Below, piece by piece: positions 3,282 to 17,386 of a stretch of DNA of 64,000 nt (positions are counted from its first letter, which is position 1; every line of letters begins with the position of its first letter). This DNA is from a virus (Duplodnaviria > Caudoviricetes). The stretch covers positions 32,001 to 96,000 of the IMG/VR virus record IMGVR_UViG_3300001528_000425, one strand, 5' to 3'. The notes under the pieces were generated by a model. The model was given only the letters and a program-made list of their open reading frames with translations. It did not search any database and was not told the DNA's origin. The translations under genes were made by a program, and so were the position numbers.

Positions 3282-5399
3282 TTACGCTACGATCACTTGG
3301 TTGTCCACTCGAATTCTACCTTCAGCGATCAGTCGTTCACGGATCAAATCTTCCATCTGTCCGTAATCCGGAAGACCGAAGTATTGATTCTCCACGTAAA
3401 CAGCATTCTCGAATGCATAGATCGCGTTGACGAAGAACTCTTCCACTTCATAGGATCGAAACGATGTGGTAGGCATGCCAGTTTCGTCAAGGTGTCCGGT
3501 CTTGACTTCCTCGCATCTAATCGGTCCAACACGTCCACTATCGTCGATGGAGAGAGCTGTGGATAGTTTGGTTTCCTTACTACAGTTCAGCATCTGCATG
3601 AGTGAGGGGTACATTGCTTAAGAGAATACATTCTCTTCTTTGACTATATCTTCACCATCGATCTCGCGATCGGTCAGGTGTCTCTTGTTTGGGCTTGCGC
3701 CTACTCCCGTGTCCGGGATAGTCGATGAACCCGATCCTCCTTACGAAGGACCTCGGCTGCTGATTACACATTGTCACATGACCCTTAGCACCTGTTACCA
3801 GGCTTTTATTGCAGCATAGGTCGAGCTTTATGTTTCTTTCTGTCTTTCAACAACATTCACGCTTGCCGTTACCAGCTACGTTGTAGTACATTAAGCTACT
3901 AGTGTTTCCCAGCAATTAAAGAGATTTCGACTCATGGTTTCCCATGAGAAGAGGCCAATGTCTATTTTGACTAACCTAACATCCTCATCACACACGATCT
4001 TCTGCACGGAGGACAATTTATCGGACTCCTTTAGGATCGGTACACCCGTACCTCTGGCGTTCAACGGATCGAGTACCGCACCACCTTGGTTGATGATGTA
4101 CTGATCGGTATCCTTCACCAACGGTTCACCGATACTTGCCGGAACCTTACCTTGAGGCAACAACCATTCATAGAAGGTATTCTTCAGCTGAACGGTTTGT
4201 TTGGAGAAGTCTTCCAACCTGGAAGGTCCGATCAAGTTCATCAAGTTCCTGACGTCATTGTTCTTCCAATTCATCAGGTACAAGATGGCATTGTCAACGA
4301 TGTTGTATACGGTATAACCAACGAAGTCCTTCGTTTGCATATCGTAGTGGGTGCGGTTCTGACCGAAGTCTAGCTTACCTGCTCCTAGTTCCTTGGCTCC
4401 AATATAATCCAACTTGTAGTTGACATCTCTACCTTTCGCCTTACGGAGACGTCCGTATAACTGCATGGCGTCGATGAACTGCGTATAGCCAGATAACTGG
4501 AACCAATCCCAATGGTCGGTGATATGATCTCCTGGTTTCCCTTTATCCTTGTTGTACTTGCAGATCCTGAGTCTTTTTGGTACTTCAGGATGACACATCA
4601 CATCAGCGGGATCTTCTCCTAAGAAGGTGAGTCTCTCGATGATGCGCGGAATATCGTAGCCCATGTTCCAGATGACTACGAAGTCTGGTTTGCATTGATG
4701 GATCTGTTGAAAGATCCACTTGATCACTTCGACTTCATGATCTGACTCGAAGTAATGGATGTTCAGGGGATGATGATCGTAGAGTTCCTGGATCTTCGGT
4801 TTTAAGGCATCTCTGAATTGTTTGTTGACTCGAGTTTCGAATTTCTTCTTAACTGCTTCAATTCCCTCCCCTTCTCGGAAGAACGGTTTGAAGATCGAGC
4901 AATAACAATTCCCATCTCCATTGATGAACGAGATCAGAATGATCTCGTTGTTTCCAACAACCGAAGACTCAATGTCAAGGGTTCCTACGTTGTATCCAGG
5001 AGGGTTCCTCGGATTCATTTTACGGAACATGCCTTTGATACGAACACCGATATCGATATCCGCACCATAGACATAAGGAGAAGTCATCAGCTTACGCTGA
5101 TTGAAATACCCATTGCCATAACCGACATTCTGTCCAAGTGCTTTCGCCAGGGTACGACCGATCTCACAGTACTTCGTGTTGAACATGTCGAGCTCGTCCA
5201 TGGGAGCATACTCTTTCTTTTCAGAATAGTTACGCCTCCCAGGTTTGGTTACCCATACCTTGACAGTAGGATCTTCCACGATCATTAACTCGGATACACC
5301 CGTGTCTACATTTTTGATATTCGCCACATATGCATCGTGGTCTCTACCAAGAGGAACGTAGACACCGTGAACGAATTGATGTGTCTGATACACACTCAT
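3282..5399 (-). CDS. Family-B DNA polymerase subunit (3'-5' exonuclease + motif A; phiKZ-type split polB), spliced: join(5399..3974, 3616..3282), 586 aa
   Basis: ExoI LDIES, ExoII WNMGYDI, YKLDYI, ExoIII YNIVD, GGAVLDP; removing the intron gives DEDVR-S-MYPS (DxxSxYPS). Confidence 0.9.
3617..3973 (-). ncRNA. Group I self-splicing intron (IA2-like, ORF-less, 357 nt)
   Basis: P AATTGCTGGGAAAC, Q AATCAGCAG, R GTTCATCGACTA, S AAGATATAGTC; P1 with U-G at the 5' splice site, P10 CAUUG/CAAUG, P7.1/P7.2 hairpins, terminal G. Confidence 0.93.
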
Positions 5400-6843: not shown

Positions 6844-6929
6844 TGCCTCTCCAGTTCAAATGAATGTATCTGAAGAGTAGGTGAGACTGGGGTTATTTAT
6901 AACATAGAGGTAATTGTTAAATTTTAAAG

Positions 6930-7275
6930 ACACAATTCAGTCCCAACATGATCACATAAGAGTGTAGAAAGTTTCACCATGATAACCACCATATAGGTTA
7001 ACAAGGATGACTTATCTAGATACTCTTACGTGTTTGATTTCGGTGGAACCAAAGTTCCGATGGGTTTGTGGAATCTGCCGAGCCAGAGCAGGAGCGTGTA
7101 CTCCATAAACTGGCGTCAAGCGTCTTACAAGTAAGTCAAATGTCGAAAGCTTCATAGTGAAGTCCTCCTAACCAACTCAGGGAACAGTAGGTGCTGGCGG
7201 CACCTACTGTTCCCGTCTATTAGTTTATTTGAAATACGAAGGTAATTGATGATTGTGCGACCGACTGAATTGTGT
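6930..7275 (+). ncRNA. Large structured ncRNA, copy A (unassigned family)
   Basis: 13-bp terminal stem acacaattcagtc/gactgaattgtgt; core homologous to 16617-17037 with covarying stems. Confidence 0.8.
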
Positions 7276-7286
7276 AGAACATCAAT

Positions 7287-7796
7287 TCATTTCAAATCCT
7301 CTCCGAAATACTTCTGATAGAACTCATCGACAGAAGGTCTCCCAATGGTATCTGGTAAGGAATCAAATGCTCCCGGGAATCTGGATACTTTCAACGGTAC
7401 GACGGGTTTAGGAGGCTTAATTCTATGATGCATGTGAACCGACGTCGGCTTCCGCTGTATCGGCTTCATCTCATATTTTTGGATAGCTTCCGAGACGCAG
7501 TAATCGTTCTTATGGTTGTTGAGTTTCATCCAGTCCTCTGGACTGATAGAACTTTCCATCATGAACGTTACCACCGTCTTACGTACTTTGTCGTAGATAA
7601 CAGGATACCAGATTCCCTTGAAGTATACGAATTTCTGAATCACACGTAGAGACTGACGTTCTACAACAACACTTAATACAGCACTCTGACAGTGTTTGGA
7701 TATCACTTCCAGATCCCTGGTTGTCAGTGCAAGTCCGTAACGCTCCAGTGCTCTACGTTTAGCATGATGAATTTCAGATTTCTTCTTTGAAGCCAT
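7287..7796 (-). CDS. Hypothetical protein, possible RelE/BECR-like fold at the N-terminus
   Basis: HAKRRALERYG helix followed by beta strands ending VIYDK..KTVVTF. Confidence 0.6.
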   Translation of the reverse strand: MASKKKSEIHHAKRRALERYGLALTTRDLEVISKHCQSAVLSVVVERQSLRVIQKFVYFKGIWYPVIYDKVRKTVVTFMMESSISPEDWMKLNNHKNDYCVSEAIQKYEMKPIQRKPTSVHMHHRIKPPKPVVPLKVSRFPGAFDSLPDTIGRPSVDEFYQKYFGEDLK

Positions 7797-7861
7797 CTTC
7801 GCGTCTCCAGTTCATACATAACCTCTCTTCCTTGTTAGATGAAAAAATAAAAGAAGAATCC

Positions 7862-7891
7862 GGGAGGGAGAGGGATATCCCTCTCCCTCCC
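7862..7891 (-). terminator. Perfect palindrome / terminator
   Basis: gggagggagagggat|atccctctccctccc plus T-tract on the minus strand. Confidence 0.75.
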
Positions 7892-7917
7892 TAGAGATTC
7901 ACTGAGCCGTTGGCGGA

Positions 7918-8376
7918 TTATTTCTTCTTGAATGCCGCTTCGATCTCAGCAGCGCACTGAGCCAGCAGGCCGCCTTCTTTCCGCAGTTCGCGGTTGAAGT
8001 TGCGGTTGATCGTGATGGAGGTCTGGCCGTACTTCACGCTGCGGTACTCTTTGCCGGTGCCGGGAGTCTTGCCTTCGCTGATCACTTCGCCCTTCATCTT
8101 GATTTCGGCGGAATCATTACCCTGGCCGAGCTTGGCGAGCTGCGGGACTTTGGTCTCGATGACTTTGTCTTTCATCAGCGGAAGGACCGCTGCGGAGACA
8201 GTGTCGACGGCGTCGATGACGACTTTGCGGACTTCTTTGGTGGCGCCGAGTTCGGCGAGCGCTTCGTCGTAGTCATTGCGAGACATGGTGAACTGGTTCT
8301 TGGCCGGATCATAAATGACCGGCTTTCCGAGAACGGTGAACTCCTGGGTTGCGACGGTTTCTTTGTCTTTGCTCAT
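7918..8376 (-). CDS. Hypothetical protein, probably highly expressed early
   Basis: 152 aa, strong codon bias, aaggag RBS, own early promoter and terminator. Confidence 0.85.
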   Translation of the reverse strand: MSKDKETVATQEFTVLGKPVIYDPAKNQFTMSRNDYDEALAELGATKEVRKVVIDAVDTVSAAVLPLMKDKVIETKVPQLAKLGQGNDSAEIKMKGEVISEGKTPGTGKEYRSVKYGQTSITINRNFNRELRKEGGLLAQCAAEIEAAFKKK

Positions 8377-8448
8377 TTTGGAACTCCTTTTGGTTTATTG
8401 GTGAGCGGACGAAAAAGTTAACCATTTCTTTCTTCGTCTTTCAATTTA

Positions 8449-8456
8449 GTAATATA
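8449..8456 (-). promoter_or_regulatory. Early promoter core TATATTAC
   Basis: TATATTAC-N5-TGAA. Confidence 0.7.
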
Positions 8457-8491
8457 TGCACGGAAGCTCTATGAGATTTTCCGTGTACGTA

Positions 8492-9055
8492 TTATTTTAC
8501 AAGGGTCGGATCTTTGGTTTCCACCACAGTTCCGTTAGCGTAGATCACTTCACGGAACGACCATCCGTGCGAGTAGTCTGTCTCAAACGGAGGAATGTCT
8601 TCCTCTCGTGTGGTAAGTATGAAGGTATCCAGGGCGTCGATGAACTCCAAGAAGAATTTATCGTAGATACATGTAGACGCATCCTCAGATTGATCCACTT
8701 CGAACAGATAACGCCAGATCAATTTCTCGCCAATCTGTTGGTCGTACTGACTGGTAAGTAGATCTACTTTCTCACCGTGAAGATAAACGGTTGGTTTTCC
8801 ATTTTCCCTGGCGAGCACACCATGGATCGTCTGATTTTCTGGAATGACCTGTACGGAGATAATCTCTGATCCGAATTTCTTACCGAAGAAATATAATGGG
8901 ATCAGGTGAGAGAAGAAACCACCATGCAGTACGATCGCTTCACCAATGATCAGTTCTCCGAATCTCACGAGAACCAATCTCGCGTTCTTGAAATGATATC
9001 GATCAATGAAGGTAATCTGAACGTCTGTAAGTCTTCCTAATTTATCGGTTGTCAT
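8492..9055 (-). CDS. Hypothetical protein
   Basis: 187-aa ORF, aggagg RBS. Confidence 0.75.
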   Translation of the reverse strand: MTTDKLGRLTDVQITFIDRYHFKNARLVLVRFGELIIGEAIVLHGGFFSHLIPLYFFGKKFGSEIISVQVIPENQTIHGVLARENGKPTVYLHGEKVDLLTSQYDQQIGEKLIWRYLFEVDQSEDASTCIYDKFFLEFIDALDTFILTTREEDIPPFETDYSHGWSFREVIYANGTVVETKDPTLVK

Positions 9056-9087
9056 TGGTTATCCTCCTTTCCTAGGAAAGGGCGTTG

Positions 9088-9726
9088 CTACTTACCTCCA
9101 GGTGTCCCTTGATAAGTAAGTTTGTTGTTTTTACGATTGAGATGGAACTTGCGTTCCGTTTTGTCGATGCGCCAGAAGCGTCGTTCATTCGCTGGCTTCG
9201 CATCGATTTCGGCTTGTCTGGCTTCGAGGTTGATCGGGTCGAGAATCAGTTCGAAGGCATCCCTACTGATCGTAAGGATCGGACGTCTGGATTCAGTCAA
9301 TTTCCCAGCCATATCCTTGTAGATTTTCCACAAGTACCATAACTTCTTAGAAACCCTTCTTCCGGGTCTTCCGTGATTTTGGAAATCTCTGACTAGCATA
9401 TCTGTCATGTATCCAGAGCAGATCATCGTTCCAGAGCGGAGATCCAAAGAAGCCCAATAGGCATCTGCACCTTTGGGATCTTTCAGGATCGCATGGATGG
9501 ACAAGAAGATCTTGTTATCATCCATCCCGATCGTCTGGGCGATCTCTTCCGGATTGGGAAGAAGATTTGCCAGTTGTACGGATGATGCCAAGAACTGCTC
9601 CCAGATGGCAAATGCCAGCCACCGAAGATCCTTCGGTACAACGTGCGCCACCCAAGAAGGAAATAACTGGATCAGTTGCTCCAGAGAAGGATGGAGCTCT
9701 TCAACATGTTCGTTGGTTTCACTCAT
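9088..9726 (-). CDS. Hypothetical protein
   Basis: 212-aa ORF, aggag RBS. Confidence 0.75.
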   Translation of the reverse strand: MSETNEHVEELHPSLEQLIQLFPSWVAHVVPKDLRWLAFAIWEQFLASSVQLANLLPNPEEIAQTIGMDDNKIFLSIHAILKDPKGADAYWASLDLRSGTMICSGYMTDMLVRDFQNHGRPGRRVSKKLWYLWKIYKDMAGKLTESRRPILTISRDAFELILDPINLEARQAEIDAKPANERRFWRIDKTERKFHLNRKNNKLTYQGTPGGK

Positions 9727-9794
9727 GTAGGTTCTCCTTATACTGCCTTTACATTGGTATGATATATTCTACTTCTGTAAAGAATAACTTGATT

Positions 9795-9902
9795 TTACTG
9801 AAGTTCTGGGAGTATGGAACGATACTCCTCGACATTCTTCAGGGTTTGTCCAACGGAAGCATTCAGATCAATGATCGTCACATCCGAATGTTCATGATTC
9901 AT
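9795..9902 (-). CDS. Small hypothetical peptide (35 aa, MNHEHSDVT...LPELQ)
   Basis: aggagg immediately upstream (spacing unusually short); first ORF after the early promoter at 9945. Confidence 0.35.
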   Translation of the reverse strand: MNHEHSDVTIIDLNASVGQTLKNVEEYRSILPELQ

Positions 9903-9944
9903 TCCTCCTTGAATTAAGTTAACATTTAGCTTGGGTTCATAGTT

Positions 9945-9952
9945 GTAATATA
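9945..9952 (-). promoter_or_regulatory. Early promoter core TATATTAC
   Basis: TATATTAC-N5-TGAA. Confidence 0.7.
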
Positions 9953-10031
9953 TGTGTTATTAAGTGTAGAAATTTAAGGATCAGTGGTATGATATGAGTT
10001 TAAAATACGAACAACTATCAAGGATACTAGC

Positions 10032-12611
10032 ATGCGATTCTTATCACTTGAACTGAAAGGTTATTTGCCTCTCAGTCATTGTGGGACTCATCATCTCACG
10101 GCAGGATTTGAAGATATTTGCACAGCATTCCTCGGGAACAATGGAACCGGGAAATCTTCTATCTTGAGGACATTGACTCCCTATCCGGAGACTAGAACAG
10201 ATTATTCCAAGAACGGATACTGTAAGAAAGTCATCGAGCACGAAGGTCATACCTACGAGTTGATCTCAGACTTCAAGAATGCCACCAAAGCTCATTCCTT
10301 CATCAAGGACGGAATAGAGCAGAACATATCCGGAGCCACTGAAACGCAAACAGAATTGTGTAACGAAGCATTTGGGTTCAGTCAGATGATCGAGACACTC
10401 ACATCTGGCGGGTACGATATGTGCAATATGAAGAGAGCAGAGCGGAAAGAGCTGTTGATGTCAACATATCCTTCCGATCTTTCATTCATTCTGGAATATC
10501 ACAGGAAAGTTCGATCCCAGATCAACATGCACAACAATAACCTGAAGATGCTACGGGAACGAGAGCACACCTTGAAAGGTAAGTTGTTGGACAACGATCA
10601 GTTACAGGATCTTTATAAGTTCCAGAAGGATCTTAACGTATTAGCGAACGACATCGATCGTTTTATTCTACTCATGGAGCAGGATAAGAAGAGATTTGAA
10701 TCCGACCCACAGTATTCTGAAGCTCTCAGAAAGTTCAGAAATGGAGAACTGATCGATGTGGATGATCTCGTCCGACAGTGCTACGATGTCCGGAATCGTG
10801 CTTGGGCTTGTCGCAGAGAGCATCCGGATATCTTTACCGATGCGGATTTCTTCACGGAATATCGAGTAAAAGCCCAGGAGACAACTCGTCTGGAGCAGGA
10901 TATCGCTGAGAATGAACAGAGTATCCACAAAACCAGAGAGGAACTGGAGGAGTACGAGAAATACAAAGATCTCAACATCGAACAAGAATTAGCCACTCTA
11001 ACCAACCGACAGGAGTGGTTACATAACGAAATCAATAAACTTCACGTCGACGAGAGTTGTCCGAAATGGTCCAGAGAAACCCTGGAACGTGCTGAAGTCG
11101 AGTTCCCTGTATTAAGGGATCTTTGCATCGAAATCCACGGGATGAACTGTACCGTCTGGAGTAGAGAAAAGCTTCATGAAGCGCAGACCGATATCCAGGT
11201 AAAAACCAGACAGATCCAAAACATCCGGCAAAATCTCGTGGCAGCAGAAACCAATCTGAGGAATCTCAAAGCCAGACAGCAGAATGAAAACAACTATACG
11301 ATTCCTCGTGGTTGTGTGATGACCTGTCAGCTGAAGAATTCTGTTCTTAAGATGCAACAGAGGACGCAGTCTGAACTCGACAAATGGTCGTCTGAAGTCA
11401 GTGATTTAACAGACGCAATTACATCTCTTGAATCTTCGTTAGAGGAGTCAAAACAGGCTATCCAAATGCCCAGCCTTGCTATGCCTAAAATCGAGATGAT
11501 TCAAGGTATTATACAAGGCTATAACGGGGGTAAAACGGTCTTAAATGATCTCGATGTAATCGACGTGTTAAATGAAGATCCGTTCAGTATCTCCAATAAC
11601 TTCCTTAAACTGATCAACGGCAATAAGGTGATGATCACTCGTCAGGAATATGAGAAAGAACTCATGATGACCCAGACGAAGATCAGCGCCTTAAAGACCG
11701 CACAATCAGCCGCTAAGGAGTTACAACTGATCTCCAAAACCATCTACGAGAAACAAACAGCGTTATCATTGTTGATCCAACAGTACGATGGACAGGTAAA
11801 ACATCTTGAAGTGATGAAGACGAAATGTCAAAAGCTGAAAGAGATGAGCGAACTTGTCGAGCGTATCACGATGCTAACCAAGAATTACCAGGAGTTCTCG
11901 AAGGCGAGTTGGGTTATCGCTCGTATTGATTTTGATAATGAGATCATTCGGGAGTATACTGCTATTAAGCAAGTGGTCTACGAGAAACTAAGAGAGATTG
12001 ATACAACCATTCAAGAACAGGAGAATTGGTTAACTCGTCTGAACGATGAGATCATGCCGAATATTCGTTCCATTGAAGCAGAAGTGAAAGACTGGATTGC
12101 CATTGAATCTGGTCTGTCTCCAAACTCAGGTATTCCTCACGTCTACATGGTTCGTTATATCAACCGATTGATCACTCGTGTGAACGAGTTTATCAAAGCT
12201 GTTTGGTACTACGACATGGAGTTGGTGTATCTGGATGAAGACAAACCTTTGGATTATGGTATCCAAGTCATGATCAACAAGAACAGCATCGTCAAAGATC
12301 TAAGTATCTTGTCATCCGGTCAGAAGGCAATGGTATCGCTAGCATTCACATTAGCGATCTGCATGGACCGAGGCTACGCTACCAAATATCCGATGAAGAT
12401 GGATGAAGTTGATCCGGCTCTCACTGAAAATCACCGAATTCGGCTAACGAATCTGATTTCTGATTGGATACAGAACAAACAGATCACGCAACTGTTCCTG
12501 GTAAATCACTTTGTGATCCATACAGGTATGACAGATTGTGGAGTGATTTGTTTATCTACGGAAGGAATCGTGGTTCCAGCTGAATACAACAAACATGTTA
12601 CAATCAAATAA
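10032..12611 (+). CDS. sbcC: SbcC/Rad50-like SMC ATPase
   Basis: Walker A GNNGTGKS, long coiled coil with central CxxxC hook, signature LSSGQ, Walker B MKMDE, H-loop LVNH. Confidence 0.9.
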   Translation: MRFLSLELKGYLPLSHCGTHHLTAGFEDICTAFLGNNGTGKSSILRTLTPYPETRTDYSKNGYCKKVIEHEGHTYELISDFKNATKAHSFIKDGIEQNISGATETQTELCNEAFGFSQMIETLTSGGYDMCNMKRAERKELLMSTYPSDLSFILEYHRKVRSQINMHNNNLKMLREREHTLKGKLLDNDQLQDLYKFQKDLNVLANDIDRFILLMEQDKKRFESDPQYSEALRKFRNGELIDVDDLVRQCYDVRNRAWACRREHPDIFTDADFFTEYRVKAQETTRLEQDIAENEQSIHKTREELEEYEKYKDLNIEQELATLTNRQEWLHNEINKLHVDESCPKWSRETLERAEVEFPVLRDLCIEIHGMNCTVWSREKLHEAQTDIQVKTRQIQNIRQNLVAAETNLRNLKARQQNENNYTIPRGCVMTCQLKNSVLKMQQRTQSELDKWSSEVSDLTDAITSLESSLEESKQAIQMPSLAMPKIEMIQGIIQGYNGGKTVLNDLDVIDVLNEDPFSISNNFLKLINGNKVMITRQEYEKELMMTQTKISALKTAQSAAKELQLISKTIYEKQTALSLLIQQYDGQVKHLEVMKTKCQKLKEMSELVERITMLTKNYQEFSKASWVIARIDFDNEIIREYTAIKQVVYEKLREIDTTIQEQENWLTRLNDEIMPNIRSIEAEVKDWIAIESGLSPNSGIPHVYMVRYINRLITRVNEFIKAVWYYDMELVYLDEDKPLDYGIQVMINKNSIVKDLSILSSGQKAMVSLAFTLAICMDRGYATKYPMKMDEVDPALTENHRIRLTNLISDWIQNKQITQLFLVNHFVIHTGMTDCGVICLSTEGIVVPAEYNKHVTIK

Positions 12612-12617
12612 ATAACG

Positions 12618-12657
12618 CTAACTAAGGTAGGGATCATCCGATCCCTACCTTAGTTAG
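12618..12657. terminator. Bidirectional terminator (18-bp stem)
   Basis: ctaactaaggtagggatc/gatccctaccttagttag between convergent genes. Confidence 0.75.
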
Positions 12658-12661
12658 TTCT

Positions 12662-13594
12662 TTATATGGAAAATGTGACGGAGTTCTTGTCGTACTGGTA
12701 AGCAACCGTACGACGTTTACCGTCTTTCGTGAATATCAATCCGTTCTCTCCGTATTGATCAACTTGAACAAATTCCGGAGTAGTGCTGTTTGAGTATCTC
12801 GGAGATTTCACGATATCGTACCGGTATCCCTCCATACTCATCGGGAGAGTAACCAGGAATCGAAACCCTCCTTGTTCATTGCGATTACCGCCACTTACTT
12901 CAATGACGCCAGTGCCGGTTTTTCGTATGCAGACGATTCGCATGCAATCGTTGATTTTAAATACAGCCAGTGCACATTGCTGGTCACTGAGGAAAATAAG
13001 TTTGGAGCAAACTAACTCCGAGTCGGTTTGCCCATCGATCACACCGGTAGGTTCGGTTGCAGCAAGGTACAGTGCGATCAGAGTGTCGATGCGTTCGGAC
13101 GTCGGCAATTCACCGATGGTTTCGAAGTTGCGATCGTGAACACATAGACCAACGAAATCGATCATAAAACGTCCTTGTTCCAGTGCAGAAAGAGTGACAA
13201 CAGAAAGATGTCGCAGATCTCCTCCTCGCATCACAGAACACAGTACTCTGTTTCGACCACACAAATGGAATACATATTCATTGGGGTCTGTTTCTGATAT
13301 CGGACCAGCGTACATACCAGATACCTGCGGCCGTAATCGATATTCGGTTTCTCCAAGATCAGAACCGATCTTGATCCGTGTGGCATTGGTATCGAGCCCT
13401 ATCTGCTCATTCGGTGTATAGAACTTCATAACGAAGTTTCGATCTTTGATCTTGAAATTGAAACACTGTTCGGCGTCTGTAATACGCTCTCGTGTTTCTT
13501 CCAATTCGAATTTGAGATGACCTGATTTGTCGAGCGCGCGGGATGCATGGCATCCCAACGCTACACCAGCGTAAAGCATAAGACGGTTGAACAT
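12662..13594 (-). CDS. Hypothetical protein
   Basis: 310-aa ORF with RBS. Confidence 0.75.
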   Translation of the reverse strand: MFNRLMLYAGVALGCHASRALDKSGHLKFELEETRERITDAEQCFNFKIKDRNFVMKFYTPNEQIGLDTNATRIKIGSDLGETEYRLRPQVSGMYAGPISETDPNEYVFHLCGRNRVLCSVMRGGDLRHLSVVTLSALEQGRFMIDFVGLCVHDRNFETIGELPTSERIDTLIALYLAATEPTGVIDGQTDSELVCSKLIFLSDQQCALAVFKINDCMRIVCIRKTGTGVIEVSGGNRNEQGGFRFLVTLPMSMEGYRYDIVKSPRYSNSTTPEFVQVDQYGENGLIFTKDGKRRTVAYQYDKNSVTFSI

Positions 13595-13716
13595 AATGAT
13601 CCCCTATGTAAGTTGTTGGAATAACCTCGAATAAGCAGACAAGATGCAATACTGCGGAAATTGCCTAGCATAATATGTTAAATTATTAAAGAATAACCAT
13701 GTGAAGGAGCCGAACC

Positions 13717-14532
13717 ATGCATTCAACATTAACTAACATTCTGGCTCGTGTAACTCACACGATTCACCCTGAACTTCTCAATCTGGGTATGCGGATAGCC
13801 CAACGTTATGGAGATCCTGTCAATAACACCACTGAGTTCGTTCTGAAGAAGATCCTCCGTGAACGAGTTCTTTTGGACTGTAACATCTCCGGAGGTCCTA
13901 TCAAATACATTGTTCTCAGACTGAAATGGAAAGAGAACGTGTTTCCGGAACTTACTCCATATGCCATGGATGATGGTGGATTCGATTTGTATCGTATTCC
14001 TCCGGAAGCCAGAGATAACCTGCCACTGACCCAAGTGATTCGGGTTTCTTATCCATACAGCACAGTCGGAGACGTTGCGACCGTATATGCCAACGAAGGA
14101 CAGTATAGCGTTTTGGCAGCAGCCAATAGCATGCTGGATTCGTTCACTCTTGCATCGGAAGCGAACCCTCCTCTCTGTTCTCTGCTGTCAGGCGATATCG
14201 TTAAGATATTCCCCAGTCAAAATTCCCATATCGATTGGGTGCTGACCTGTCGTACTTCTTATGATGAGAATTTCTCCAACTTGGATGTCAGTGCTGTACG
14301 CACCATCTGCAAATTGACTGAGCTGGCAGTCAAAGCCTACATCCATACGAATCTGTATATCTCGATCGATCGAGCTGCTCAGGAGTTTGGTGTGGACGTT
14401 AGCACGATCCGTCAGGCAGTGGAAGACTGTCGCGATGCCAACCAGATGTATGATGAGCAACTGAACCAATGGCAAGGAACTGCTCTCATGGACCCGGAAG
14501 CACGAGCGATCTACACCATGTTCAATCTGTAA
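13717..14532 (+). CDS. Putative virion structural protein (phiKZ-like conserved)
   Basis: 271 aa, aaggag RBS; resembles conserved jumbo-phage structural proteins (from memory, not searched). Confidence 0.55.
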   Translation: MHSTLTNILARVTHTIHPELLNLGMRIAQRYGDPVNNTTEFVLKKILRERVLLDCNISGGPIKYIVLRLKWKENVFPELTPYAMDDGGFDLYRIPPEARDNLPLTQVIRVSYPYSTVGDVATVYANEGQYSVLAAANSMLDSFTLASEANPPLCSLLSGDIVKIFPSQNSHIDWVLTCRTSYDENFSNLDVSAVRTICKLTELAVKAYIHTNLYISIDRAAQEFGVDVSTIRQAVEDCRDANQMYDEQLNQWQGTALMDPEARAIYTMFNL

Positions 14533-14552
14533 CAGAATTATGTACAAAATAA

Positions 14553-14591
14553 CAGTTAGGGTGTTGGGACTTAGTCCCAACACCCTAACTG
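14553..14591. terminator. Bidirectional terminator
   Basis: cagttagggtgttgggac/gtcccaacaccctaactg between convergent genes. Confidence 0.75.
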
Positions 14592-14607
14592 CCCTATAGG
14601 AAGGTCT

Positions 14608-15867
14608 TTAGTTGTTGTAATCAAAACTCAGCAAGATGATGTAGAGGATAAATGCGATCTTCAAAGACGCTTTCGTCGCAGGTCTTTCTGATACTTTCAA
14701 GGTCTCCACGAAATTGGCAACACTCTCCTTTACCAGCAGAACACCAGGATCGGTGATGCGGGAACTCCGATACAGATCTTTTGCTTTGTTGAGGATAGCG
14801 ATTCTTACTTTCATGTCCACTGTACCGGAGAGGATACACGCACGATATGTCTTCTGGATGATCGCATCGATCATAGCGGCATACCCGATGATGATCTTGC
14901 CATCTTTACTCATATCATTCTGCTTATGTTTCTGGTATTGAACCAGAGCCATAGAACTGAACCCGAGGAGTACTGTTCTCATTGCATCCGGACGAACATT
15001 CGGTACCATCTTGGTGATCATATTGATCAGAGTGTGCTTGACGAACTCGTTGGCGTTGAGAGATTTATTTGTGATATTGGAGATCATGACATCATACGTT
15101 GCCACGAGATCTTTCACAGTTTTCTCTTCTCCACGAGTATCGATCAATGTGGAGGTACCGATACGATTGTTCTTCTGTAGATTGTCGTAGTACTCATTGA
15201 TCACCAACCGGAGTTTGGTGCGGATACGAGTCTGGGCATCTGTAATGATGTAGAGAACTTTTTGATCCGGAGCGAAGGTGAACAAGCTGTTGTAATGGAT
15301 ACTCTGCTTATCGAAGATATCCTTACTACGCGCTTCGATGATCAGTTTCCAAGTATTCGTCTCAGGTTTGATGATGTCGAATTTCTTGGACATCTGATCG
15401 ATAGTAGCTTGCATGACTTCTAAGTTAGCTCCATACTTCAATCTGTGGTTCACGACTGAAGTAAAGAACTTGTAATGCATCATCTTGAAGAGGACCATCA
15501 AGATCTGTTGTTGCTGAGGAACACTTACTTTTACGGAGTGTAAAGTGCAATAAGCTGCCCATACTGTGAGTAAATTGTACAAGTCGGAGATAACCTTAAA
15601 GTCCTGGTTCACCGACTTGCACTGTTTGATCGTTTTGCTGAACTCATCTTTGTCCACTCCAAGGATATCGAACAAAGCATTAACGTCTTTGTTCAAGAAG
15701 TGAACCGGATGGATACCGATCAAAGGACTGTTGAAAGCTTCCGGGTTGTTGTCCCGGACTTCATAGGAAATACACCACTTAACCAGTGCGTCGTGAACAC
15801 GTTTGTTGATATCAAGATTGCACCGGCTAAGCAGCAATTCTTTCAGAGAAAGATTGACTGATGCCAT
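14608..15867 (-). CDS. Putative virion structural protein (phiKZ-like conserved)
   Basis: 419-aa helical protein preceded by the putative late motif catcctatg. Confidence 0.55.
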   Translation of the reverse strand: MASVNLSLKELLLSRCNLDINKRVHDALVKWCISYEVRDNNPEAFNSPLIGIHPVHFLNKDVNALFDILGVDKDEFSKTIKQCKSVNQDFKVISDLYNLLTVWAAYCTLHSVKVSVPQQQQILMVLFKMMHYKFFTSVVNHRLKYGANLEVMQATIDQMSKKFDIIKPETNTWKLIIEARSKDIFDKQSIHYNSLFTFAPDQKVLYIITDAQTRIRTKLRLVINEYYDNLQKNNRIGTSTLIDTRGEEKTVKDLVATYDVMISNITNKSLNANEFVKHTLINMITKMVPNVRPDAMRTVLLGFSSMALVQYQKHKQNDMSKDGKIIIGYAAMIDAIIQKTYRACILSGTVDMKVRIAILNKAKDLYRSSRITDPGVLLVKESVANFVETLKVSERPATKASLKIAFILYIILLSFDYNN

Positions 15868-15909
15868 AATGATAAATCCCTGTTGGAATAGTTGTTATAC
15901 GCTATAAGA

Positions 15910-15918
15910 CATAGGATG
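15910..15918 (-). promoter_or_regulatory. Putative late promoter CATCCTATG
   Basis: Ends in TATG, the phiKZ late consensus; motif repeated upstream of structural genes. Confidence 0.45.
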
Positions 15919-15958
15919 GTTCCACTACCGTAGAATGAACAAAAAATAAAAGAGGACG

Positions 15959-15994
15959 AGGGAGGGAGAGGAGCATATGCTCCTCTCCCTCCCT
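15959..15994 (-). terminator. Perfect palindrome / terminator
   Basis: agggagggagaggagcat|atgctcctctccctccct plus T-tract. Confidence 0.75.
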
Positions 15995-16001
15995 GTATCG
16001 A

Positions 16002-16313
16002 TTACTCGATCACGTCGGCGACTTCATCGGGGATCGCCGGAACTTCCGGGACACTGGTGTCGCCGCTCTGGCATTTCTTCACGATGAGTGCGATGGTTCC
16101 GACCACGGCAACGGCGCCGAGAGTCCACAGTCCGATCTTGACGAATTTGTTCATGGGTTTCTTCTCCTTGGGTTCGACCTGAATTTCCGGAACATCGACG
16201 ACGATTTCCGGTTTCTCTTCGGTGACGGTCTGCGCTTTGGCTTCCTGTTCCTTGACCGCAGCTTCGATGTCGATGCCCTGTCCGAATTCTTTCTTCTCTT
16301 CGTTCATTTTCAT
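16002..16313 (-). CDS. Small single-pass membrane protein
   Basis: TM segment IGLWTLGAVAVVGTIALIV; aggag RBS. Confidence 0.8.
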   Translation of the reverse strand: MKMNEEKKEFGQGIDIEAAVKEQEAKAQTVTEEKPEIVVDVPEIQVEPKEKKPMNKFVKIGLWTLGAVAVVGTIALIVKKCQSGDTSVPEVPAIPDEVADVIE

Positions 16314-16372
16314 TTCTCCTAGGTTTGGTGATGGTAAATTGTTGTTTGGTTGTTATTGGTTAATTGTTGAAA

Positions 16373-16510
16373 TTACTCAGCGTCTTCAGTCCCTTCCGGA
16401 CCGTTGAAGTTGTAAGACGTATCGATCCTGTGCGTCTCGTTGCCAGCAAGAGTACCGGCAACCAGAAGACCAAGACCGAGTCCGACCATGAAGTAGCAAA
16501 GCTTTTCCAT
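16373..16510 (-). CDS. Small membrane peptide (45 aa, MEKLCYFMVGLGLGLLVAGTLAG...)
   Basis: Translated by hand; aagga RBS; first gene after the early promoter at 16574. Confidence 0.6.
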   Translation of the reverse strand: MEKLCYFMVGLGLGLLVAGTLAGNETHRIDTSYNFNGPEGTEDAE

Positions 16511-16573
16511 AATAAACAATGTCCTTTCGATTCGATTGTTGTTTTAAGTTTCTTTTTGGTTAACTTCACGAAT

Positions 16574-16581
16574 GTAATGTA
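16574..16581 (-). promoter_or_regulatory. Early promoter variant TACATTAC
   Basis: GTATACATTAC-N5-TGAAGTTA. Confidence 0.65.
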
Positions 16582-16616
16582 TACGTGAGTTTAGTTGATT
16601 GACACTAATGTTGTAA

Positions 16617-17037
16617 TACGAGTTCGATCCGAATAGATGTGAGGTAAGTTATATCCGGATGAGAGTTAGAGCAGACGGTACGATCGTGAACTTACCTCTA
16701 CACGATCACCGAGTTCATTTTACTGTAAGTAAATAATTACATCCTCCTAGCCATTGTATAGGCTAAGATAGGAATGATCACTTACTTACAGTTACATGAA
16801 CTACTTTGTTGCAAGCAAAATTCTGCTCTGTGAGTAAGATCTGCCTTGCCACGGCAGGAGCGAAAGATCCGTACCGTGGTGTAAGCTGTCTTACAAGTTG
16901 ATTGAATGTGGAAACATGCATTGGCATTCTCCTATCTAGCTTAGATCCTCCTAGGGTGCCGCTAGCACCCTAGGAGGATCGCACTATTTACATTTAATCA
17001 TAGGTAATTGCTTTCAGGGCGACTGATCGAACTCGTA
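16617..17037 (+). ncRNA. Large structured ncRNA, copy B (unassigned family)
   Basis: 13-bp terminal stem tacgagttcgatc/gatcgaactcgta; paralog of 6930-7275 with an extra 5' domain. Confidence 0.8.
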
Positions 17038-17044
17038 GTGATTC

Positions 17045-17191
17045 TTAGTTCAGGTAAGCTTTCTTACCACGTTCGATTAATTTCTCAGCCTTGCGATAGG
17101 CAACGATGGTCACTCCTGCAACAACGATGACACCTACAAGACCAACCTTGAAGAGTGTCTTCGCATCTACTAGTATAGCCATGCCTGTCAT
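17045..17191 (-). CDS. Small membrane peptide (48 aa, MTGMAILVDAKTLFKVGLVGVIVVAGVTIVAYRK...)
   Basis: aggaggt RBS; one TM helix followed by a basic tail. Confidence 0.7.
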   Translation of the reverse strand: MTGMAILVDAKTLFKVGLVGVIVVAGVTIVAYRKAEKLIERGKKAYLN

Positions 17192-17301
17192 AGTCACACC
17201 TCCTTTGAATAAAGAAAGAGGTCATGATTCATGTGAACCTAACCAGAGGTACGCCAATACCCGGAAAACGTACACGATGAATCATGACCAAAATTAATTA
17301 T

Positions 17302-17330
17302 TGTACTAACTTCACCTAAGTAATGTATAC
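17302..17330 (-). promoter_or_regulatory. Early promoter; 29-nt exact repeat of 20117-20145
   Basis: tgtactaacttcacctaagtaatgtatac on + in both places. Confidence 0.75.
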
Positions 17331-17348
17331 TCGAAAAGAAATGAATGA

Positions 17349-17381
17349 CATCTAGACGGAGGGTATCCCTCCGTCTAGATG
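17349..17381 (-). terminator. Terminator after terminase
   Basis: catctagacggaggg/ccctccgtctagatg. Confidence 0.75.
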
Positions 17382-17386
17382 CTTGA

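Follow-up and report, generated by a model that had tools for sequence, protein, structure and literature searches.

Two structured stretches of a phiKZ-like jumbo phage genome as probable stem-closed early mRNA modules for a basic microprotein

What is encoded by a stretch of phage DNA that lies between annotated genes, folds far better than expected and is sealed by a perfect stem? The question is raised by positions 6930-7275 and 16617-17037 (modules A and B) of a 64,000-nucleotide stretch, hereafter the window, which spans positions 32001-96000 of a virus record of 235.6 kb that has direct terminal repeats (IMGVR_UViG_3300001528_000425). A sequence-only reading had described the two as diverged copies of an ornate non-coding RNA, transcribed independently from the plus strand of gene-free gaps. 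Both stretches are present as described: the ends of each form a perfect 13-bp inverted repeat, the two repeats differ in sequence, an ordered set of conserved blocks is common to both elements, and their divergence with compensatory changes in the stems is borne out. The identity of the product, on the other hand, has to be revised. The reading preferred here, to which we assign a probability of roughly 0.65, is that each module is a self-contained early mRNA of the minus strand with paired ends, encoding a basic helical microprotein, and that its fold probably provides stability and insulation from the surrounding context.

Neither gap is free of genes. Six-frame translation of the reverse complement reveals a minus-strand open reading frame (ORF) in each of them, and both were missed because the list of ORFs used earlier had a floor of 50 amino acids. 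An AGGAG-type Shine-Dalgarno (SD) site precedes the ORF in A and in B, and the two products are 55% identical. SD-bearing ORFs are found in all copies of the element, which comprise eight distinct modules: A-D in the genome of the window phage, and E, G, H and I in the lineage of a relative, the 238-kb IMG/VR jumbo phage G001 used for comparison. Invariant residues of the microprotein are encoded by varying synonymous codons, and third codon positions have changed about twice as often as first or second ones. For the two closest module pairs the ratio of non-synonymous to synonymous change (pN/pS) is 0.17-0.21, and 17 of the 27 changes are synonymous against an expected 24% (binomial p = 2e-5). 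This substitution pattern clearly points to purifying selection on the peptide, and the non-coding label fails with it, as the most conserved part of the elements is precisely this ORF of 47-49 codons. Once reverse-complemented, most of the conserved blocks read as conserved codons, and so do the GAAA and GGAA motifs once taken for GNRA loops.

Among the eight peptides identity is 40-72%, and all of them are basic, with an isoelectric point (pI) of 10-11.7, a grand average of hydropathy (GRAVY) of -0.45 to 0.07 and five to eight Lys and Arg residues each. AlphaFold2 predicts one long helix without transmembrane character over residues 5-35, with a mean predicted local distance difference test score of 84. 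A hidden Markov model search of 1.84 billion representative proteins returns four clusters only, all of 47 amino acids, and tblastn of two of the microproteins against 50,697 GenBank phages finds no homolog. A variant of module E (L015:9055-9195) carries a 1-nt deletion just before the stop codon that adds a few codons; because its ORF is lengthened in this way, the C-terminal residues seem to tolerate change.

The ORF is embedded in an architecture of strict layout. On the coding strand the same elements follow each other in the same order in all eight distinct modules, with helices at the same positions relative to the ATG: the 5' arm of the closing stem P1, a 5' motif, a leader/codon helix, hairpin L, an SD hairpin, the ORF, hairpin S and the 3' arm of P1 (Table 1 for A and B). 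P1, a stem of 11-16 bp, is formed in every one of them: five modules have 13 perfect base pairs, and the other three have 14, 11 and 15, the last with four G-U pairs. Its sequence is different in each. The consensus of the 5' motif is GTCGY followed by (TGAAAG)CAATTACC. The core CAATTACC occurs in the modules and in a few other places, and was rejected as a general promoter element, its occurrences outside the modules falling mostly in coding DNA. Downstream of the motif the leader pairs with codons 5-8. Hairpin L has 14-17 bp with at most one G-U pair and a loop of 3-6 nt, ends about 20 nt before the ATG, and shows double-sided compensatory changes at 11 of 14 aligned pairs. It is separated from the ORF by a conserved YTRAGCTRG stretch and the SD site, which a small hairpin pairs with codons 3-5 in minimum free energy (MFE) folds. 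At the other end of the ORF, hairpin S bears a CC-UAUANNNN-GG tip in nearly all copies, and an extra 3' domain is present in six modules.

Table 1. Features of modules A and B and of the adjacent transcription signals (window coordinates)
Feature	Position	Strand	Remarks
Module A, whole	6930..7275	-	346 nt, bounded by closing stem P1
A: P1 5' arm	7263..7275	-	13 nt; begins 11 nt past where the upstream 169-aa ORF stops
A: conserved 5' motif GTCGY ... CAATTACC	7241..7262	-	From alignments; mostly unpaired in predicted folds
A: hairpin L	7180..7214	-	15 perfect bp, 5-nt loop; directly upstream of the ribosome-binding site
A: ORF	7012..7155	-	47 aa and stop; preceded by AGGAGG at 7164-7169; protein pI 11.7
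A: hairpin S	6953..7032	-	Covers the last codons and the stop; apical CC-UAUANNNN-GG loop
A: P1 3' arm	6930..6942	-	Perfect complement to the 5' arm
Module B, whole	16617..17037	-	421 nt, bounded by P1 (arms 17025-17037 and 16617-16629)
B: conserved 5' motif CCTGAAAGCAATTACC	17003..17018	-	From alignments
B: hairpin L	16944..16980	-	16-17 bp; stem almost identical to that of module E of the related phage
B: ORF	16778..16927	-	49 aa if read from the first ATG; probable start is the second ATG (16921), with better SD spacing and 47 aa
B: hairpin S	16722..16792	-	Crosses the stop codon; UAUA loop
B: extra 3' domain	16630..16711	-	Helices possibly pseudoknotted; absent from the short modules A and E
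Early-promoter motif TATACATTAC	17320..17329	-	Heads a unit of a 50-aa membrane ORF (17045-17197) followed by module B
Next early-promoter motif	16574..16583	-	34 nt after module B

The stability of the fold is evident at several levels. On both strands, A and B are far more stable than their dinucleotide shuffles (z from -7.0 to -13.7), and per nucleotide the modules are 2-4 standard deviations more stable than random 400-nt windows of the genome, despite their lower GC content. Only seven perfect inverted repeats of at least 12 bp spaced by 150-520 nt exist genome-wide, and four of these enclose precisely the four microprotein ORFs; in block-shuffled sequence the counts were 1, 1, 2, 4 and 13. 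The number of long inverted repeats is thus about that expected by chance, whereas the bracketing of the four ORFs is not. RNAalifold applied to MAFFT alignments recovers P1 and hairpin L only, because the other helices are out of register in these alignments; the latter were derived from folds of the individual sequences. Outside the window, some 400 nt upstream of module C, a further perfect 13-bp inverted repeat surrounds 222 nt without a convincing ORF (G000:C1:99005-99226) and may represent a closed RNA element of another type.

None of the Rfam 15 covariance models, including those of ROOL, GOLLD, HEARO, OLE, raiA, tmRNA and RNase P, reaches its gathering threshold in A or B. Neither strand yields a match even at E values up to 10, where only noise appears (best 23.8 bits against a threshold of 50), and six further loci (modules C, D and H (L138), and K, L and M of the related phage) have no Rfam match at E up to 0.01. 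The absence of group I intron, RNase P and tmRNA hallmarks, noted earlier, is therefore upheld. A group I intron in particular is rejected for both elements because its model (RF00028) is silent in them and because the flanking genes are complete: the upstream ORFs end 7-11 nt before P1, and the RuvC gene, with its own SD and ATG, encodes 205 amino acids, as many as in the relative. The same model does detect an intron elsewhere in the window, at 3620-3990 on the minus strand (57 bits), which splits the DNA polymerase gene into the exons of ORFs 3891-5399 and 3282-3614 and is the sole true Rfam match within the window. What stands of the earlier proposal is thus an undescribed, strongly structured RNA family, as both the folding and the missing Rfam match indicate; what falls is its strand, its non-coding status and its copy number.

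As to the strand, the motif TATA(T/C)AT(T/C)AC is found 18 times on the minus strand of the genome and once on the plus strand, always before genes; within the window it lies at 1003, 3215, 16583, 17329, 20144, 26485, 36172, 51673 and 61101, all on the minus strand. It is often embedded in a longer TTCATG...GTGAAG context. Early promoters read by the virion RNA polymerase (RNAP) of two-polymerase jumbo phages are AT-rich elements of about 10 nt centred near -10 (PMC7598289; PMC8244752), and by analogy with them the motif is likely the early promoter consensus of the window phage. In modules C, E, G and I it precedes the 5' arm of P1 by 11-19 nt, a place taken in H by the variant TATATAATC; close upstream of A or D it was not found. 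As the next promoter motif follows module B after 34 nt, B would end its transcription unit. Intrinsic terminators of typical form follow modules H and D, so that a single module can make up an entire transcription unit. Immediately behind the terminase gene, a 16-bp hairpin (17348-17382, minus strand), followed by the early promoter at 17329, is likely a terminator dividing the late gene from the early unit.

Folding energies point in the same direction. The MFE of module A is -127.8 kcal/mol on the coding strand and -121.8 kcal/mol on the opposite one, the corresponding values for B are -169.5 and -162.8 kcal/mol, and in 11 of 11 modules the coding strand folds better than its complement, by 6-33 kcal/mol. 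The P1 stem of module G contains four G-U pairs, and the recent substitutions that separate modules G and M, or I and J, are mostly transitions between G-C, G-U and A-U which keep the pairing on the coding strand only. No sigma-70-like promoter, terminator or phage early-promoter motif is present on the plus strand at either locus. On the strength of the bias of the promoter motif, the G-U wobbles of the closing stem and the lower folding energy, the RNA is assigned to the minus strand. It would thus be co-directional with all flanking genes and under phage early promoters, rather than opposite to its neighbours as had been proposed.

Nor are there only two copies. Tblastn and profile searches locate two more modules in the genome of the window phage, at about 98.4 kb and at 151 kb, and G001, which was recovered from IMG/VR by a degenerate codon pattern of the microprotein, holds another four; further copies reside on several metagenomic contigs. 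The large terminase (TerL) of the window phage shares about 33% identity with its counterparts in Erwinia, Vibrio and Pseudomonas jumbo phages, and its relatives carry a PhiKZ-type major capsid protein. Because of these terminase identities and this capsid protein, the window phage is regarded as a distant phiKZ-like jumbo phage, seen in metagenomes only. TerL is 63% identical between the window phage and G001. The flanks of module C are homologous to those of G/M, and the flanks of D to those of H/N; with terminases only 63% identical, two or more of the four paralogs are therefore older than the divergence of the two phages. Other pattern searches were uninformative: an exact-pattern scan of IMG/VR with two conserved blocks gave chance matches in coding DNA only, a 14-mer of the 5' motif gave at least 117 chance matches in IMG/VR, none with the ORF, and the degenerate codon pattern returned nothing from JGI metagenomes.

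Taken together, these data are compatible with the following course of events. The modules would be transcribed early by the virion RNAP, either from their own early promoter or inside early operons. P1 would pair the RNA from within a few nucleotides of its predicted 5' end, and the closed fold would yield a nuclease-resistant mRNA that folds alike in any context, so that the microprotein could be made reliably at any genomic position. Stability and insulation are probably the role of the fold, and the likely binding partner of the basic peptide is a nucleic acid or a nucleoprotein machine.

Several observations weigh against this reading. The microprotein has no usable match in Pfam, PHROGs or the ESM Atlas, and Foldseek against the PDB returns none at E <= 0.001. 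Module A is absent upstream of RuvC in the relative, where a 45-nt spacer stands instead and the conserved leader of RuvC sets in again no more than about 10 nt from the position of the P1 arm, and module B is absent downstream of TerL in five relatives (L012, L013, L014, L016 and L017); since A and B are missing at orthologous sites, some copies must be dispensable or portable. Copy N of G001 (L151:1460-1732) has lost 126 nt, its frameshifted ORF running to 163 codons, and is either a decaying copy or an assembly error. P1 and hairpin L are almost devoid of G-U pairs in most copies, which would also fit palindrome dynamics at the level of DNA. Such dynamics do take place: in the near-identical modules I and L (L139:5893-6303 and L147:1339-1749) the 6-nt loops of hairpin L are exact reverse complements of each other (TTACTG and CAGTAA), the result of a DNA-level flip between the hairpin arms. 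At the site of module A, the 9-mer CAATTACCT of the 5' motif forms a direct repeat at 6908-6916 and 7240-7248, the former just outside the module, where the RuvC-like gene has its conserved leader; the repeat may have arisen by chance or be left over from the insertion of the module.

These last features could be taken to mean that the modules are portable cassettes with palindromes that work at the DNA level (recombination, cruciform formation or replication), the RNA fold being a by-product. The perfect Watson-Crick palindromes of most copies, the inverted loop and the presence or absence of whole modules at orthologous sites would all agree with this, as would the fact that paralogs inside the related phage resemble each other more closely (53-72%) than modules of different phages do (40-60%), perhaps through duplication or gene conversion. 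The arms of P1 nevertheless differ in every copy, leaving no sequence-specific site for a transposase, and two module pairs are stably syntenic across the two phages. Palindrome dynamics in DNA clearly occur, yet they cannot explain why G-U wobbles are tolerated on the coding strand only, or why the modules contain imperfect, bulged helices (P2, the ribosome-binding site (RBS) hairpin and hairpin S) that make sense in RNA only, and we regard an explanation at the DNA level as improbable. Poorer still are the prospects of independent plus-strand ornate non-coding RNAs antisense to the genes, as first suggested for A and B. A few helices of the two modules, in the leader/codon helix, do have plus-strand G-U pairs, and the excess stability over shuffles extends to both strands; but the ORF under selection, the one-sided distribution of the promoter motif and the better folding of the coding strand in every module all contradict it, and the P1 wobbles of modules G and J turn into A-C mismatches on the plus strand. 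That idea is largely refuted.

Two further explanations accept an mRNA on the minus strand and differ in what its fold is for. In hok mRNA the full-length form is closed by long-distance pairing of the 5' and 3' ends, the tac/fbi fold-back (PMC9841398), and the modules resemble it in their closing stem, their size of about 350-420 nt and their ORF of about 50 codons. By extension, end pairing and sequestration of the SD could hold the full-length mRNA inert until processing, with antisense control from the plus strand as in a type I toxin-antitoxin system. The pairing of the SD with codons 3-5 in MFE folds and, in module E, a competing local hairpin over the 5' arm are in keeping with such a lock. 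Partition-function folds do not bear this out: compared with 80 ordinary genes from this genome, the SD and start codon of the modules are not significantly less accessible. The ensemble probability of an unpaired SD is 0.32 against 0.40 (p = 0.15), the comparison for the region from -14 to +3 gives p = 0.05, and the ATG lies more open than in the ordinary genes. Because the accessibility test lends no support, the peptides are basic rather than hydrophobic and the plus strand offers neither type of promoter motif for an antisense RNA, a hok-like lock was demoted and now appears quite unlikely. A less remote, if still doubtful, proposition is that the folded RNA is the main product, acting as scaffold, decoy or partner of its own peptide in a small ribonucleoprotein (RNP), with the ORF in second place as in RNAIII or SR1. 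The rest of the architecture (motif, UAUA loop and helix positions) is conserved as strictly as the ORF itself, and stability far above the genome background speaks for it as well. In the pair of modules I and L, moreover, the 5' untranslated region differs by the loop inversion only and the 3' untranslated region not at all, neither having a point substitution, while the ORF has changed at 14 positions. Against this, no target, partner or trans-acting pairing site was identified, and strong purifying selection on the peptide shows the importance of the protein. This proposition and the preferred reading of a stem-closed mRNA are compatible and not mutually exclusive, since the strict non-coding architecture leaves room for a second role at the level of RNA.

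Among known systems, the closest analogues in their way of working are the mRNAs of type I toxins and the dual-function RNAs, although the modules fit either class only in part or not at all. With hok/Sok and other type I toxin mRNAs, such as AapA1 of Helicobacter pylori, they share the small ORF (about 50 codons), an mRNA length of a few hundred nucleotides, a closing 5'-3' stem and hairpins around the RBS (PMC9841398). Of the features of type I toxin-antitoxin systems, the long-distance pairing of the ends is found in the modules, but their peptide is basic and not a small hydrophobic membrane toxin, and no antisense gene was found; the SD is paired in MFE folds, yet RBS accessibility in the ensemble is like that of ordinary genes. 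They are also phage early genes present in four paralogs, without sequence relation to those systems. Dual-function RNAs (RNAIII/delta-haemolysin of S. aureus, SR1/SR1P of B. subtilis, SgrS/SgrT of E. coli) likewise carry a conserved small ORF within a constrained RNA fold, and the signature of purifying selection together with covarying helices suggests the same combination of a translated small ORF and a conserved RNA structure in the modules. Those RNAs, however, lack closed ends and a hairpin over the stop codon, whereas the modules are multi-copy elements of jumbo phages for which no base-pairing target is known. Like ROOL, GOLLD, HEARO, OLE and raiA, the modules are long, highly structured, found in phage genomes and strongly covarying. 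These RNAs are non-coding, though, while the ORF takes about 40% of each module, and no covariance model matches; the comparison with ROOL- or GOLLD-type ornate RNAs made earlier accordingly does not hold as stated, given an apparently translated minus-strand ORF inside.

Phage morons and the promoter-stem-loop cassettes of the T4 type are small genes with their own promoter and hairpins that are present or absent as a unit between conserved genes. The modules depart from this pattern in that their hairpins form one closed RNA domain, the inner layout of which is conserved, and in that they also occur inside operons without a promoter of their own. They do conform to the early genes of phiKZ-like phages with two RNAPs, which have a strand-specific, AT-rich motif of about 10 nt upstream of their units. 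The family is undescribed, without a match in Rfam, Pfam or PHROGs and with four protein clusters only among the 1.84 billion representatives. It is intriguing to go further and imagine a portable class of "stem-closed microprotein modules" of jumbo phages, in which an ornate RNA and its own tiny protein cooperate early in host takeover, for instance as a small RNP or as an excised, end-protected and possibly circularised mini-mRNA, but this must be taken as speculative and has rather low odds.

For the discovery of structured RNAs the case carries a caution, since an "intergenic" element with convincing covariation turned out to hold a microprotein gene on the other strand. For the biology of the phages, the strict layout of the modules and the maintenance of four paralogs in each of two jumbo phage lineages of the nucleus-forming type argue for a real function in early infection, with the microprotein as a candidate host-takeover factor. 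From closed-end mini-mRNAs it could be learned how the early messages of giant phages are protected or insulated, and the module could itself serve as a portable, self-insulating expression cassette.

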